From Octopus vulgaris (lineage: Eukaryota): 64,000 nt of DNA. The notes under the pieces were generated by a model. It was given only the letters and a program-made list of their open reading frames with translations. It ran no database searches and was not told where the DNA came from. The stretch covers positions 75,764,001 through 75,828,000 of the forward strand of contig OX597828.1 in NCBI GenBank assembly GCA_951406725.2. Reading direction: 5' to 3'. Position numbers and translations under genes: made by a program. Each line of letters begins with the position of its first letter. Position 1 is the stretch's first letter. Positions 1-39,374 of this stretch are shown in pieces.

Positions 1-1026
1 CTTTTTTCTCCATTCTAAGTTTACCTCTGTCTTTGTCTGTTCGTCCTTTTCTTTGCACGTTCTCTCTTCTTTTTCTTCTGTTATCTTGCTTTTGATTTTT
101 TTCTTTTTTAGAACTTTCGGTGGTGATTCCACCCTTGTTCTCTTCCTATCTTCTGTTCTTTCCTCCTCTGCACTTGCACGTTCTTCTTCCACATCCTCAA
201 TTAGCTGCTCCTCCGTTTGCGCCTCAACTGCTTTCATTTCCTCCTGCATTTCTCCCTCCTCCACACACGTATCTTTCCACTCCTTCGTTACAGCCTCCGG
301 TGCTATCGTTTTCTCCAGCGGGCACACATCCTTCATGTGGCCTCTTAATTTGCAATTATAACAGACTTGGGGTCTTCCCTCTACCACGACTCTAAGCCGT
401 GTCTCATCATGGAAGACCAACTCCTCCGGGATGTTGTATAGGTCTGGCACGGCTATATGTGCCAGAACCTGTACCGCATATCCCCACCACTTAACTTCTG
501 TTGACTTTTCCACCTTCACCGCCTCCACACTTGCCTTGCAGTTGAAAACTACTGCCGCTAATATCCTCTCCATGTTAAGTTCGGGCGAAATCCTAATAAT
601 TCTTATTCTGACTGCCCTCTTTCCGCAGTAACTAGGTAATAAAGTCCAACTTTCCGATTTCAGAATTTTTGTCGCATTCTTTCTTGCTTCATTTTCATTT
701 TTAAAGCGTACCACCACTGTGGCATATTTCCTTCCTCTGTTGAAAAAGGTAGGTTCACCCTCAATTCCTTGCAGACATTTCTCTATTTCTTCCATCTCTG
801 CTACTTCTATTTTTCTTGACGCCACACAACATGTCCTGTATGTTATCATACGTTTCTCCGTGTTGTTTTCTTTTTCGGACGGTGTGACTCTCACGCAGTC
901 ACCCTCCCTCTTCAAACTGTCGAAATATTTTTCTAAAGTCTTCTTCTCGACTACCACTTCTTCCATTTCTAGTCGACTCGCAACCAGGCCTCTGCCTGCT
1001 GCTCTCGCATACGTCTGGTCTTGCAT
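1..1026 (-). CDS. ORF1p/gag-like nucleic-acid-binding protein (RRM-like region + CCHC zinc knuckle), intact, runs off the left window edge
   Basis: Manual translation from ATG at 1026 is stop-free to position 1 (342 codons): MQDQTYARAAGRG...FFNRGRKYATVVVRF...LLPSYCGKRAVRIRI...RLRVVVEGRPQVCYNCKLRGHMKDVCP...RKRTRVESPPK. CX2CX4HX4C knuckle is intact. Probably absent from the ORF track because no stop lies in the window. Collinear with the protein at 36590-37863. Confidence 0.85.
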   Translation of the reverse strand, partial: MQDQTYARAAGRGLVASRLEMEEVVVEKKTLEKYFDSLKREGDCVRVTPSEKENNTEKRMITYRTCCVASRKIEVAEMEEIEKCLQGIEGEPTFFNRGRKYATVVVRFKNENEARKNATKILKSESWTLLPSYCGKRAVRIRIIRISPELNMERILAAVVFNCKASVEAVKVEKSTEVKWWGYAVQVLAHIAVPDLYNIPEELVFHDETRLRVVVEGRPQVCYNCKLRGHMKDVCPLEKTIAPEAVTKEWKDTCVEEGEMQEEMKAVEAQTEEQLIEDVEEERASAEEERTEDRKRTRVESPPKVLKKKKIKSKITEEKEERTCKEKDEQTKTEVNLEWRKK

Positions 1027-1143
1027 TTTCAAAATCTCCAAATAAAATTCACCACGTCCTCCAGCAACGAACTCGAACTCACAACCTCTTCACAATGACG
1101 CACTCAAAACAAACACACGAGAATAACGACTCCAAAAAAAATA
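1..1143 (-). mobile_element. ORF1-encoding non-LTR element, copy 1 (5' part; 3' end outside window)
   Basis: GT-rich 5' leader (1143-1027) and an ORF homologous to copy 2. The 5' junction directly follows CAGCTGACC (1152-1144, minus) of a hammerhead-bearing repeat. Confidence 0.7.
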
Positions 1144-1692
1144 GGTCAGCTGGTGATATTTGTCTCGACTTCGCAATTGTATATATCTATAATTCAGTGA
1201 AGTCTATTCACTGATTATCAAAATAAGAAATACTGAATTTCTAAATCTCTCGTAGATACATGTACGGTGGTGGGGCGATAGAATGGTTGTATACTGTCAA
1301 TCGAACACGAACGTGACAGTAGGGGGGTACACAACCGCTGTATAGTCCTAGGAAGCATCGAACGCCTCCTGATAGCTTTGACACATTTTTCCCTGTGTCC
1401 TTATATACATTTACGAAGGGGAGACAAACACCCCCGGCCGCCGAAGAGTAGCAGACACCGGTCAGCTGACCGGTGTCTGCTACTCTAGGCCGCTGAAGGA
1501 CAATGATCCTGAAAAACGTGTCCCTAGATGCAGCTTCGGCGGCCGGGGGTGTTTGTCTCCCCTTCGTAAATGTATATAAGGACACAAATGTGTCAAAGCC
1601 ATCAGGAGGCGTTCGATGCTTCCTAGGGCTATACAGCGGTGGTGTACCCCCCTACTGTCACGTTCGTGTTAGATTGGCAGTATACAAACATT
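1144..1692. mobile_element. Retrozyme/Penelope pLTR-like repeat with fold-back arrangement
   Basis: Inverted arms 1282-1446 and 1534-1692, perfect 42-bp palindrome 1445-1486, HHR-like motif 1484-1528, ends in a (TA)n tract. Confidence 0.65.
1484..1528 (+). ncRNA. Degenerate type I hammerhead ribozyme
   Basis: TCTAGG-CCGCTGA-AGGA caatga TCCT-GAAA-aacgt-GTC-CCTAGA. Stem I (6 bp) and stem II (4 bp) are intact; the core differs from CUGAUGA at two positions, so this copy is probably inactive. Confidence 0.6.
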
Positions 1693-2977: not shown

Positions 2978-3067
2978 TTTTAGTACAATCGTTTCATACA
3001 AGGACAGGTTTTATTAAAAGTTGCAAAATTACAGCATATAAACGTGTCCCGTACTCATCAGCTAAAA
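2978..3067 (-). ncRNA. Type I hammerhead ribozyme (left-arm copy)
   Basis: Reverse complement of the motif at 3836-3926. Confidence 0.75.
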
Positions 3068-3835
3068 TACATGTGAGTTCTCTAGACATCCTAGTGGTTG
3101 AGGCTATACTCATGAAGTAATGTAGATAATTAAGTAACATAAACAGATTTCAAAAGTTCATTAAAGTTCTTTAAAGATGATGTACAGTCTTATCACAGAA
3201 TTTTTAAAAAGTCTTAATAGCATCACAGAGAAGGTGACCCAATCCATAGTGCACATATGAATTTCCAGAGATATGATGAGGGATTACATACTCACAGAAG
3301 GCAAATTTATCCATTGTTAATTACAACGAGGTGGGTTTCAATTCCTGCTTATTAGCATTACAGAGAGGGTGAATTAATCCTTTGTATAGATGCACAATTT
3401 CCAATGGTGTAGGTGTAAATTTCAAGGAATTTCATATTCACAGGCGATAAATTTATCGCCTGTGAATATGAAATTCCTTGAAATTTACACCTACACCATT
3501 GGAAATTGTGCATCTATACAAAGGATTAATTCACCCTCTCTGTAATGCTAATAAGCAGGAATTGAAACCCACCTCGTTGTAATTAACAATGGATAAATTT
3601 GCCTTCTGTGAGTATGTAATCCCTCATCATATCTCTGGAAATTCATATGTGCACTATGGATTGGGTCACCTTCTCTGTGATGCTATTAAGACTTTTTTAA
3701 AATTCTGTGATAAGACTGTACATCATCTTTAAAGAACTTTAATGAACTTTTGAAATCTGTTTATGTTACTTAATTATCTACATTACTTCATGAGTATAGC
3801 CTCAACCACTAGGATGTCTAGAGAACTCACATGTA

Positions 3836-3926
3836 TTTTAGCTGATGAGTACGGGACACGTTTATATGCTGTAATTTTTGCAACTTTTAATAAAACCTGT
3901 CCTTGTATGAAACGATTGTACTAAAA
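3836..3926 (+). ncRNA. Type I hammerhead ribozyme with extended stem II and minimal stem III
   Basis: TTTTAG-CTGATGA-GTACGGGACA...TGTCCTTGTAT-GAA-AC gatt GT-A-CTAAAA. 6-bp stem I, intact core, GUA triplet (predicted cut after 3920). Confidence 0.8.
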
Positions 3927-34152: not shown

Positions 34153-36476
34153 CCTTTCTAATTTAGACACAAGGCTTGAAATTATAGAAGCTTTGCTTGA
34201 CATCGAAAGGACGACAGGCAAAATCGACCTCGGCAGAATTTGAACTCGGAACAGAATGCTTAGTATTTTACCCGACTTACTAACGATTCTACGAGCTCTG
34301 TTGTTTTAATAGTAATAATTTGTGACTTCAGGGTCCTTCCTGCATCTAATCCTCTATAGAGTGTTATATGATTTGTCTATGCAAGATTTTCTCTTTGGCG
34401 ATACTTGTCCAAACAATGGCCAAGGAACGAACCAACACAAGGAATCTTCCTCTACGAGAAATAGCAGCTTAATTCCACGCAAAATTTACAACTTAACTCC
34501 TAAAAAGTGGAATGCAGATTTTATAGCATAGTTCTGGACAGGTATCGTGTTTGAACATTATAAAAGGTCAGTGACTGAGTCCCTTTTCTTTATAGTCGCA
34601 GTCGGGGAGAGAAAACTATGACGAAAATAACAATAATAATGACGAGGACGACTGAGCAATAGAACCGTAACAAAATTTTCAGAGGAAGTATGGTTTCTTG
34701 CTGAGAGTAATTTTCATATTAGAACATCTAAATATGCCAATTAAGTATGTTAGTAATGTATCTCGGCTTTTGACAGAGCCAACAAGGAAGTTATAGTTTC
34801 TGAAGATCGCTTTGGATAGAAACGGCAGAAAGTTTTGTATTAAAGACGTGATCATTATGAACCATCGGCAGCTACATATTAACGATCATCGCAAGCACGC
34901 AATATTTACACACACTCCAAATACGAATGCCGTTTAGCGGATGTGATATTCAGATTACTTTGAAAGACAAACGCATATGTTAGACTATTAATGCTTCGAT
35001 CATATATATGTGCATGGGTCATATAACACACACATTTATATATATATATAACTGTGTGAGTGTGTGTATGGGGTCGCGTGTGTATATATCGTACAGAAAA
35101 TTTCCGAGGGTGCTCTGTGTGTGTGTGTATGTGTTGGTGTGTGTGTTGTAAAGAAACTGTATGTCGTTGGCGGTAAACCATAAAAGTTAGTAACAAGCTT
35201 TTAGTGATTATTCGACGATAATCAGAAGAAACTAATACAGACAAGTATTGAAACATATTCGTTAAAAGAAACGTCATTAATATATGGCCTGCCTTCTGAA
35301 TAGATAACTGTGTGTGTGTGTGTGTGTTTGGGAGAGGAAGATAGAGCGATAGGGAGAGAGATAGGGAGAGAGAGAGGTATTAGCAGCAGTGTCCGTGATT
35401 CAAAAAGCTCTATTTCTCCCTCGGTGTATCAACTTCACACTAAATAATTATAGTGTGGAAATAAGCAGCGGAATGATAGCGATGGATTTAACGAGTTTCT
35501 TTATTGCAAACCACCCGTAATAAGTTGAAAGTATCAAGGACATGATTACGCTCACACGTGCCCACACATGCGCGCGCACGCACACTGACGAGGCTACTCA
35601 AAATTTGAGACCCGCATACACATGCGCACAAACATCTATTTACATTGCATATGCACACACACACAGGCACCAACATATACACATACGGGGCTAACAATTG
35701 TGCTTACATATACACACACAGACCGCAGAGATACGCACATACATATACAAACACACAGATATAGACGTACATATACAGGCAAATAAATGTATTTACATAT
35801 GCACACACGAGCTATATAGTTACACAGGTACATATATACACACATGTACACAGATGCACACAAACATACACACGCCTTAGCACACATATGAACACACACA
35901 CACACAAGAAATATCTTAGATCTGCATTGTCAAACATTTCACGTCTTGATTCATTAACGTTAAGACTTCAGAAAAGTGTTCATCAAACGCCTAAAATACG
36001 GAGCTGTGCCATGTGTCTCAATGTTATGATATGGAACAAAAAAGAAGCATTGATTTTTGCGCTGGTGGAGGCATATTTTGAAGATACGATGTAAATGAAA
36101 TCAAAAACCAAAACACCCCACCAAACCCGGGGGTAGCTGTGTGGTAGGAAGTTTGCTCCCCGAACATGAGGCTTCAGGTTCAGTCCCGTGCTAACGTTTC
36201 TGCCAACTCGCAGCCCTATATATATATATATGGATGTTACTGTAGCTTGTAGCCCCAGGAGAACATCTTCTCCAGCTACAGTAACATCCACTCTTAGTGG
36301 TTAGCCATATTGAGATGGCAAATATACTTCAGATTGTCGTGCAGTTACTGTCCATACCTCGTTCAGAGATTCATTATTGCTTGTATACACTTTTTCAAGA
36401 TCAGTGACGAAAAGTCACTGGTAAAAGGATATAAATATTTGCATTGGGACCCTCCCATCGAAAACCGGTGATTGTC

Positions 36477-38116
36477 ACGCGGACGCGTTTGTGTCGGTTT
36501 TTCGGATTTGCGGTTGTGAGTTGAATTTTGTTGATTATTGTTGTTGAGAACTGTTGCGTCGTGCTGAATTGTTGAATTGTTTGTTGGGTATGCAAGCCCA
36601 AACTTATGCGGGAGCAGCAGGCAAAAGCCTGGCTGCGAACAAATTATTGTTAAAAGAAATAATTATAGAGAAGGAAAATCTGAGGAAATACTACGACAGC
36701 TTCAAGAAGGAAGGAGACTGTCTGAGGGTTACACCACCTGAAGACGAAGTGAAAAAAGCGGAGAAAAAACCCAAAACATACAGAACATGGAATGTGGTCT
36801 CAAAAAGAATAGAAGTAGCAGAAGTGGAAGAGATTGAAAAATGTCTACAAGAAATAAAAGGAAGAACTACCTTCTTCAATAGAGGTAGAAAATACGCTAC
36901 GGTAGACGTTCGCTTCGAAAATGAAGATGAAGCGAAAAGGAACGCAACGACAGTGTTGAGATCGGAAAAATGGGTTTTACTCCTAGTTATTGTGGAAGAA
37001 GAGCGGTGAGGATACGAATAAGCAAAATCCCACCGGAACTTGATACCGAAAGATTAGTAGCTGCAATAATCTACAACTGCAAGGAGAACGTGGACATACT
37101 TAAGGTGGAAAAGTCGAATAAAATAAACTGGTGGGGTTATGCGGTGGAAGCCTTAATCCACATAACCATGCCAGATTTGTATAACATCCCGGAGGAGTTG
37201 GTGTTCCCCGACGAGACACGACTGAGAGTCGTGGTGGAGGGGAGACCTCCAGTGTATTATAAATGTAAGAGAAGAGGGCACATGGAAGATGTGTGTCCTG
37301 AAGGAGAAATACAAGAGAGGAAGATGACACTGGAGGAAGCAATAAGAGCTTTGACAGAGGATTTAGGAGATAATATGGAAAGTGACGACGAGTTAGTGAA
37401 TGAGAAAGAAGAGGAAAGAACAGAAGAAAGAGAGGATAGAAAGCGAACACGGGTGGAATCACCACCCAAAGACCAAAAAAAGAAAAACACTAAAAAGAAG
37501 TATGCTGACGAGACAGAGGATCGAACGCACGAAGGGAGAGATACAGCAACTAAGGTGAGTGAAGGTTCAAGGTGGGAGGAATGGGGAAAATGGTCAGCAA
37601 AAGTGGAAGAATGTCTGAAAACATGCAAGGAAGGAGGAAGAGCCAAAGGAAAGAATCTCAGAGCTGTAATATTGTACACAAAATATAAAGAAATTGAGAA
37701 AAAATTAGCAATAACTAAAAATCTAACGAGAGTGAAATTGAACCCGCGAATATACGATAACCAATTTAAGGCTGCAATAGTGGAAAAAGAGACGGTAAAT
37801 AAATTTAAAAATTTATTTTCAGATACAGCTGTAACCATAGTGCATTACGTTCGATATGTATGACAGTTTGCCCGGAGTTATAGAGCAAGATGAATTACTC
37901 GTTTACATTACGGACGAACACCCCAGATAGTATAACTGTAATATAAATGAAACTGCGAGCTTTGGGAGGCTCGTAAGCCATTTCATTTAATTTATTGTTA
38001 ATAATTCATTTCATTTAATATCATCCTTTTCATTTTTATAATATGTGCCCCATATCCTGTATTGTATTGTTATGTCCCCTCTCCATTCAGGCCATTGTGC
38101 CTATAATAAAGAGAAA
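36477..38116 (+). mobile_element. Complete 1640-bp ORF1-only non-LTR element (copy 2)
   Basis: 10-bp TSD GGTGATTGTC at 36467-36476 and 38117-38126. GT-rich 5' leader, single ORF, ~250-nt 3' UTR ending AATAAAGAGAAA. No room for an RT/EN ORF. Confidence 0.85.
36590..37863 (+). pseudogene. ORF1p/gag-like protein, ~424 aa when one frameshift (~36980) is repaired
   Basis: ORFs 36554-37009 and 36970-37863 join into a protein collinear with copy 1. 1-nt deletion near TTACTCCTAGT; knuckle reads YYKCKRRGHMEDVC (first Cys replaced by Tyr). Confidence 0.85.
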
Positions 38117-38126
38117 GGTGATTGTC

Positions 38127-38169
38127 GTGCGCTGGTGACGGGTCAATACCCAGAAACTGCAGTCCGTGC
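38127..38169 (+). ncRNA. Minimal type I hammerhead ribozyme (one core substitution)
   Basis: GTGCG-CTGGTGA-cGGGT caat ACCCa-GAA-AC TGCA GT-C-CGTGC. Palindromic stem III (ACTGCAGT), GUC triplet; core CUGGUGA instead of CUGAUGA. Confidence 0.72.
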
Positions 38170-39374
38170 GTATCACTTAGGTTGACGAGGGAAGGATGAC
38201 CTCTCTTTGCAAATACCGATATGGCACAGAAAGTGTGTCAATAGCCAGTTGGAGAAGATGTTCTCCCTGAGGCTACAAGCTACAGTAACATTCACCCTTT
38301 GTGGTTAGCCATATTGAGATGGCAAATATACTTCACATTGTCGTGCAGTTACTGTTCAGAGATTCATTATTGTATATATATATATGCGTATGTGTGTGTG
38401 TATATCTTTCTCTCCATTCATCAAGTGACACGCTCTTCATGCATAGAAGACTACACAAATAATTTTGCTCCTTTATCAAAGTTTAATCAGCAATCAGTAT
38501 TATTAACACAGTTTTCAATGCCAATGCCTGGCAGCAATACGCTGTATATTAGATCAATTATTGTTAGTTGGACTCTTTTAGACAGCAATTTGAATTAAAG
38601 TACCTGAAGAGATGCTGTGATGACGCATTCTGTTACAGTCTCTGACACAGCTATGAATGCAAAGTGCGGCACACTGGACCTTCTCAATAGTACGCCAACG
38701 AAAAATTACCGCGAAAAAAATGTTTATTTAGTAGTGCGGCCGTCCGCCTGTTGACGATCCACATCTCAGGCGGTTCGCTTCAGTTAATGAAATGATTGGT
38801 TCTTTATCTCCAGCAAAGGAGTAAGCCAGCGGAATTTGAACGCAGAACGCAAAAAAAAAGTGCTAGAAAGCTATCCGGCGTTCTAACAGTCATGCAACTA
38901 GCATGCTGGCGTGTGTGTGTGAGCCTGCGTGTCTACAAATGAATATGCAGATTTAGTGACTATGGTCAATATATAGCTTTTACTCGAGTAAGCCATTGTT
39001 GAATCATTTTTCTGGATACAGATAAAACTTTATGTATGGGTATAAAGTAATAACGGGAAATTCATTACAAAAAGCACAGCCGAATTTACAAAACGAGTGT
39101 GTGCGATGTAATTGTGTGCGAGTAGATGGAAATATATAGCTAAATATGCATACATATGTATATATACTATATAAAACTATATATACATAGGTGGCTGAGT
39201 GTTGGCATATATGTATGCATGTGTGAGTATGGATACATTCGAGTGTATTGCGAGAGAGATATATAGAGGGAGATGTACGGTAAATAAAGAGACCAACAGA
39301 CTGGTTTACTTTATGTTCTACTTTTCAAAGAGACGTCCAAACACACACATATATGGAAATTTCTATATGGCCAG

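Follow-up and report, generated by a model that had tools for sequence, protein, structure and literature searches.

The 64,000-nucleotide (nt) stretch of the Octopus vulgaris genome considered here (the window; GenBank assembly GCA_951406725.2, contig OX597828.1, positions 75,764,001 to 75,828,000 of the forward strand, renumbered from 1) contains two copies of a retroelement of the kind without long terminal repeats (non-LTR) whose only gene is an open reading frame (ORF) of the ORF1 type, each copy lying within a short repeat that carries a hammerhead-like ribozyme core. The copy at locus 2 is bounded by target-site duplications and stands just inside the probable transcription start of its host repeat, host 2, and it is this position, recurrent among its relatives across the genome, that is the subject of what follows. 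The element and its surroundings comprise:

36231 to 36277, minus strand: inverted 5′ fragment of host repeat 2 (blastn, 91.7% to 38247–38294 reversed)
36274 to 36466, plus strand: upstream host-2 unit, its promoter-bearing end and the first 10 nt of its transcript (84% to 38278–38380; matches empty hosts)
36400 to 36405, plus strand: hexamer common to U1 and U2 upstream regions, found de novo and, by its position, presumably like a proximal sequence element
36430 to 36435, plus strand: TATA-like box, by sequence, 27 nt ahead of the probable start
36457, plus strand: probable host transcription start (+1), 57 nt past the hexamer (from hexamer spacing, promoter-less copies and captured leaders)
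36467 to 36476, plus strand: left target-site duplication, 10 nt, identical to the right copy (+11 to +20 of the host unit)
36477 to 38116, plus strand: ORF1-only non-LTR retroelement, 1,640 nt (duplication-bounded; blastn)
36590 to 37863, plus strand: ORF1, with an RNA-binding-type N-terminal half, a CCHC knuckle, an acidic linker and a C-terminal domain of ~105 amino acids
38070 to 38116, plus strand: 3′ tail with AATAAA and no poly(A), resembling the tails of autonomous elements
38117 to 38126, plus strand: right target-site duplication, 10 nt, identical to the left copy
38127 to 38372, plus strand: remainder of the host-2 unit (tandem pair; empty-host matches)
38132 to 38164, plus strand: hammerhead-like core of type I, with cleavage predicted after 38164 and a variant core base at 38135

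The locus-2 element ends 6 nt beyond its AATAAA and is 72% identical in DNA to the other copy in the window, copy 1 (blastn). Compared with public contigs, its ORF1 is disrupted by two frameshifts, near 36980 and 37855, and in the list of open frames it stands as two, 36590–37009 and 36970–37863. Removal of 36477–38116 together with one copy of the duplication restores a host unit of ~354 nt, as the first-pass annotation had it, and empty hosts match that layout. Only ORF1, with neither reverse transcriptase (RT) nor endonuclease, lies between the duplications of the non-autonomous elements.

The wider family was sampled through a genome search with ORF1, which gave 12,524 candidates, of which 150 were scored; flanks were taken for the 30 best, for 60 further matches one at a time, and as 40 larger stretches. 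Curation led from 151 elements to 110 with a 3′ end, 88 with a called duplication and 71 with an outer flank, from which four inner array members and three mis-calls, locus 2 among them, were removed to leave 64 sites. Duplications are mostly 14–20 nt long across the family, and elements more than 90% alike occupy hosts that cannot be aligned, with differing duplications; elements in hosts 2 and 4, for example, are ~95% alike at the tail although the hosts do not align. Of the 30 sequences that best match the tail of the locus-2 element, 22 run directly into a hammerhead-like core, four into a host leader and another element, one into the leader only and three into other DNA, all judged by eye; the query contained host sequence, which favoured the top eight of these matches, and three rows form a single cluster. 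Of the 24 parsed rows with such tails, 11 passed a strict stem test. This census supports, genome-wide, the earlier proposal that the elements insert in the sense orientation upstream of the hammerhead in retrozyme-like repeats.

The position of insertion is best described with respect to the promoter. Blind enumeration of hexamers found one at −56 to −59 in 24 of 27 upstream regions of U1 and at −59 in 7 of 8 of U2, these being small nuclear RNA (snRNA) genes, and 37 of 62 target flanks have this hexamer at a like spacing, as against 1.1% at random. The duplication begins within −3 to +3 of the start set at hexamer +58 in 36 of 45 measured sites, and at +6 to +10 in six, every one of the locus-2 tail type, leaving three elsewhere. 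A TATA-like box at −38 to −22 accompanies 55 of the 64 curated sites and 9 of 13 clusters (random, 10–15%; shifted flanks, 5–14%). As to the start itself, four of six promoter-less copies of host 2 begin at the equivalent of 36457–36458, and three copies inserted in U2 carry, past the duplication, a leader of a hammerhead host that begins at the host +1. The start is placed at 36457 because the hexamer spacing, the promoter-less copies and the captured leaders agree. A subfamily near 80% to copy 1 lies at TATA promoters that have neither hexamer nor ribozyme (our locus handles L018, L143 and L127/L168), L150 is also a TATA-only target without ribozyme, and one TATA-only host is followed by a pol-like ORF. 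In other words, what is conserved among the sites is the position at the promoter and start, not the letters.

Beside these sites stand two observations on single copies. At L054 (L231) a microsatellite copy begins at its 5′ end with the first ~22 nt of U1 snRNA, from a captured leader or a template switch; a donor copy inside a U1 gene was rejected as its source, the leader pattern being unique and no element 5′ end lying beside 30 intact U1 genes. At L017, excluded from the counts as its duplication was mis-called, the insertion lies ~29 nt past the TATA box of a repeat, which we take to resemble a Helitron-type end.

Elements that carry both ORF1 and ORF2 are found at the same insertion site as the ORF1-only elements. 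Their ORF2 has PF03372 (Exo_endo_phos), PF00078 (RVT_1) and PF13966 (zf-RVT) domains (Pfam, L122). The 3′ flanks of 30 such autonomous elements, read by eye, are hammerhead hosts in 19 cases, a host leader and another element in four, U2 at +1 in five and other DNA in two, and 15 of the 30 pass the strict hammerhead stem test; Rfam confirmed the identity of the U2 targets. Their last ~50 nt resemble, also by eye, the tails of the ORF1-only elements. By their domains, and by their specificity for multicopy targets with duplications (28 of 30 flanks), they appear to be long interspersed nuclear elements (LINEs) like those of the Tx1 clade; a search for homologs of the RT returned almost only unnamed proteins, the best named match being from an argonaut. 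Their ORF1 is 27% identical to that of the ORF1-only elements over 305 amino acids (E 1e-35) and, in those sampled, is without the C-terminal domain of the ORF1-only protein; in a tree with one autonomous ORF1, a long branch separates it from the ORF1-only proteins. Two contigs hold U2 gene clusters (L232–L236) with single and tandem insertions of the autonomous LINE at +1, and one autonomous LINE (L126:3187-4360) is interrupted by a Penelope-type RT fragment of a family with many long open frames genome-wide.

Intact copies of the ORF1-only gene encode 430–463 amino acids. A weak CCHC knuckle is all that Pfam detects, comparison with solved structures gives nothing beyond weak matches to zinc knuckles, and Atlas clusters point, strongly by their own scores and as a lead only, to CCHC and ZCCHC3-like RNA-binding proteins. 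The median dN/dS (non-synonymous to synonymous substitution rate), for pairs with usable dS among 14 representatives, is 0.12 over residues 1–240, 0.39 in the linker and 0.26 in the C-terminal domain; ORF1 is under purifying selection. No longer homolog was found at E≤0.001 among 916 candidates, which is weak evidence. From the homology of ORF1 and the shared tail, elements of the locus-2 type appear to be ORF1-present non-autonomous LINEs comparable to HAL1.

Several ORF1-only subfamilies also form head-to-tail stacks, some beside autonomous elements (L127-L131, L133, L138-L140, L250), as HeT-A does, and several members of the stacks start ~30 nt past a TATA-like stretch that resembles part of another ORF1. 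Compared with L143, the copies at L168:1340-2701 and L138:8376-9725 show a sense-strand A>G bias (169 of 233 and 159 of 193 differences, respectively) that control pairs do not, and such ORF1-only copies thus point to an RNA intermediate, as if hyper-edited RNA had been copied back into DNA.

The host repeats recur in tandem at 355 nt (host 2) and ~365 nt (host 1), often with 5′ inversions and TA-repeat ends, and blastn aligns host 2 with none of hosts 1, 3, 4 and 5. Empty copies, the search for which had been suggested beforehand, are abundant: 21 of the 30 best matches to host 2 read promoter, a single copy of the duplicated 10-mer and hammerhead, and in 25 of the 30 best to host 1 the promoter is intact and nothing has been inserted. 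The hosts satisfy a hammerhead core motif with a stem-pairing test whose random rate is 0.0008. Rfam did not list the hammerhead among the 150 of 169 window matches given (microsatellite noise), nor find it at the gathering score in two host loci, and the folding z-scores of the hosts (−0.17 to −0.37) are uninformative, so that the ribozyme call comes from core motif and stem pairing. The two hammerheads cited from the window in the first-pass annotation are variant copies when set against their families, with core changes at 38135 and in the region of 1493. A type I core with stems, in tandem non-coding units within 150–400 nt, suggests that the hosts are repeats of the non-LTR retrozyme type; no match to hosts 1–4 other than microsatellite was found in 60 Penelope-ORF loci that might have held a parent. 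Newt satellite 2 also has a promoter of the snRNA type. In the host units at L086 and L094 the sole run of at least four T lies 8 nt ahead of the next promoter hexamer, a position that would fit transcription of the empty host by RNA polymerase III. A T run just inside the 5′ end, present in 55 of 61 elements, argues against transcription of the element by that polymerase.

Locus 1, at the left edge of the window, has a related arrangement on the minus strand:

1 to 1143, minus strand: 5′ part of copy 1, with the ORF start at 1026
1144 to 1160, minus strand: 17-nt duplication of copy 1, 5′-side copy, ending at ACC
1180 to 1215, minus strand: host-1 promoter, with the hexamer starting at 1215, a TATA-like box at 1185–1180 and a probable +1 at 1157
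1466 to 1690, plus strand: arm of the upstream host-1 unit in inverted orientation, containing a hammerhead-like core (1493–1522)

The 3′ end of copy 1 lies ~540 nt beyond the left edge of the window; after it come the 17-nt duplication and host repeat 1 with its hammerhead. Copy 1 thus also lies inside a hammerhead repeat, of a second family, as the first-pass annotation had predicted. The particular 3′ junction foreseen there is absent, the duplication that ends at ACC standing in its stead, and 1463–1496, formerly read as the junction flank of copy 1, belongs to the inverted arm of the upstream host and not to the downstream flank. This bears on the claim that both copies join at a common ACC^GGTG: the resemblance concerns the 5′ junction at locus 1 and the 3′ junction at locus 2. 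Since the duplication ends with ACC at locus 1, starts with GGTG at locus 2 and, for autonomous elements in host 2, is 17 nt long and ends just after GGTG, three separate cuts have been made around the same letters. ACCGGT is present at only 15 of the 64 curated sites (locus 2 itself being among the seven rows excluded before this count); duplications ending with ACC number 11, and not one begins with GGTG. On these counts ACC^GGTG is rejected as a recognition site, and the letters match by coincidence between two hosts. Further into the window, 3025–3878 is a perfect 427-nt inverted repeat with zero spacer, possibly an assembly artefact or a foldback insertion.

We consider it probable, in view of the above, that the locus-2 element is an ORF1-only LINE of the Tx1/L1 type lying at +11 of a hammerhead unit, and that its family and their autonomous partners insert by target-primed reverse transcription at the start sites of RNA polymerase II and draw on the promoter upstream. 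In such a scheme the host promoter would transcribe the element, leader included, ORF1 protein (ORF1p) would package its own RNA, and ORF2 protein (ORF2p) would be borrowed in trans by way of the common 3′ tail. In most subfamilies the first nick would fall at about −3 to +3, in that of locus 2 at +6 to +10, and the second 10–19 nt further on, such that the start site would be rebuilt and later copies could stack. By analogy with systems discussed below, position is most likely measured by contact of a protein with the assembled initiation complex, to which read-through RNA that pairs with the nicked target may contribute. The hammerhead repeats, with the thousands of snRNA-type promoters that they offer, would for that reason be the main sink; their ribozyme would be a bystander or, at most, trim read-through RNA ~50–70 nt past the tail, a role that is possible and not needed. 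A bolder proposal, which we put forward only tentatively, casts ORF1p as the targeting module: at snRNA-type and TATA promoters it would dock on the initiation complex of polymerase II, set the register of the nick and steer the borrowed ORF2p to its own offset and promoter class, hence the retention of the gene, while the downstream hammerhead would replace a poly(A) end.

The first-pass annotation offered either a non-autonomous element that targets retrozymes or a composite with the ORF inside a self-cleaving unit. Repeated landing in retrozyme-like repeats bears out the former; what fails is ACC^GGTG or the ribozyme as determinant, because the targets differ in sequence and include the ribozyme-free U2 +1 and TATA promoters. 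It is accordingly very improbable that the ribozyme is the target or is essential, with a hammerhead cut needed to form the 3′ end of the RNA. A core directly follows the tail in 22 of 30 cases for the locus-2 type and in 19 of 30 for autonomous elements (11 of 24 and 15 of 30 by the strict test), which, together with the lack of poly(A) in most subfamilies, speaks for such a need; yet the distance from tail to core varies (20–37 nt), the elements have their own AATAAA, the U2 and TATA-only sites have no hammerhead, no copy bearing host sequence out to the cut site was seen at an unrelated place, and host sequence in the query favoured the top eight tail matches. The composite, a protein-coding retrozyme copied whole by Penelope-type machinery, is hardly credible now and already largely refuted: empty hosts dominate (21 of 30 and 25 of 30), elements more than 90% alike have switched between unalignable hosts, duplications vary between copies and track the local host, and autonomous LINEs and stacked arrays occupy the same site, all of which speaks against the ORF as a fixed part of a ribozyme-bounded unit, even if several host-2 insertions share a single 3′ junction and some composites may be secondary copies.

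It is unlikely, though less far-fetched, that specificity of sequence or of RNA pairing acts alone, a short sequence that the endonuclease or the read-through RNA of each subfamily recognises happening to sit at starts, with no contact to transcription factors. A preference of 3–7 nt cannot yield such precision in 2.8 Gb, one subfamily more than 90% alike uses unalignable hosts at a single offset, and another uses unrelated TATA promoters. On the other side, autonomous sites in host 2, in U2 and at an off-target site have a few letters in common, element ends blend into the target, and Tx1 target choice is described as mainly set by the endonuclease (Kojima 2015, PMC4494074). Because those letters recur at U2 +1, in host 2 and at one stray site, a short sequence preference probably contributes to targeting.

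Several points weigh against insertion directed by promoter position. The U2 +1 resembles the start of host 2 and the off-target L220/L247 shares the same few letters, such that sequence preference could explain U2. The TATA pattern and its window were picked after part of the data had been viewed, the sites are not independent, most falling in three host clusters, and L149, L183, L045, L054, L056, L215 and L220 do not fit the promoter rule; no insertion was found beside 30 intact U1 genes. The partnership in trans is drawn from tail likeness and shared sites only. The RNA evidence consists of assembled contigs, in which start site, cap and ribozyme cut were not observed: those of four presumed-RNA runs cover host and ORF without starts or ends, and those of three further runs add only empty-site joints that are not locus-specific.

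Much of the setting is already known, namely Tx1 elements that target repeats and U2 (PMC4494074), ORF1-only LINEs (PMC5753468, PMC5786205) and retrozymes (PMC7229834; bioRxiv 10.64898/2026.07.22.740005). Like the Tx1-clade LINEs, of which Tx1L (into Tx1D), Keno (U2) and Tx1-Mar are target-specific (PMC4494074), the octopus elements have ORF1 with an apurinic endonuclease-type (APE) domain and RT, make duplications and insert into other repeats and U2 genes; unlike them, their targets are unrelated in sequence and common only in the +1 position, U2 is struck at its start, and ORF1-only passengers have an offset of their own. HAL1, HeT-A and Ag-Sponge likewise have one ORF1-type protein and no RT (PMC5786205, PMC5753468); the octopus elements differ from these in start-site targeting, in an ORF1 that is only 27% identical to that of the autonomous element sampled, and in the extra conserved C-terminal domain. 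A position set by a promoter complex, proposed for the octopus elements, has parallels in Dictyostelium TRE5-A, whose ORF1 is reported to bind TFIIIB subunits in vitro, and in yeast Ty3, which inserts 1–4 bp from the start (PMC5006619). Those concern tRNA genes of polymerase III with upstream landing, whereas the octopus elements insert in sense at or just inside +1 of snRNA-type or TATA promoters, where they would capture the host promoter; transcription from flanking sequence has been suggested for SINEU (PMC4494074). The hosts, as ~355–367-nt tandem units with a type I core, resemble non-LTR retrozymes (PMC7229834; bioRxiv 10.64898/2026.07.22.740005), for which no report of LINEs nested at their starts was found. 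An octopus repeat annotation (PMC13282606) tallies L1-Tx1 families, and neither target nor ribozyme occurs as a word in its available text; no LINE targeting polymerase II starts or retrozyme starts was found in a literature search whose scope excluded Repbase reports, subscription journals and supplements.

If true, such a LINE would be guided, to within a few bases at polymerase II starts, by the position of the promoter and not by a DNA sequence, and would widen the reach of a strategy described for tRNA genes. Sister subfamilies, which differ in offset and promoter class, would then be a natural series for the role of ORF1p in target choice, a series that also bears on why ORF1-only elements retain the gene. 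Insertion in sense at a start site is, moreover, a property of interest for gene delivery and, as a by-product, the start site and promoter of retrozyme-like repeats in animals are mapped by the insertions.

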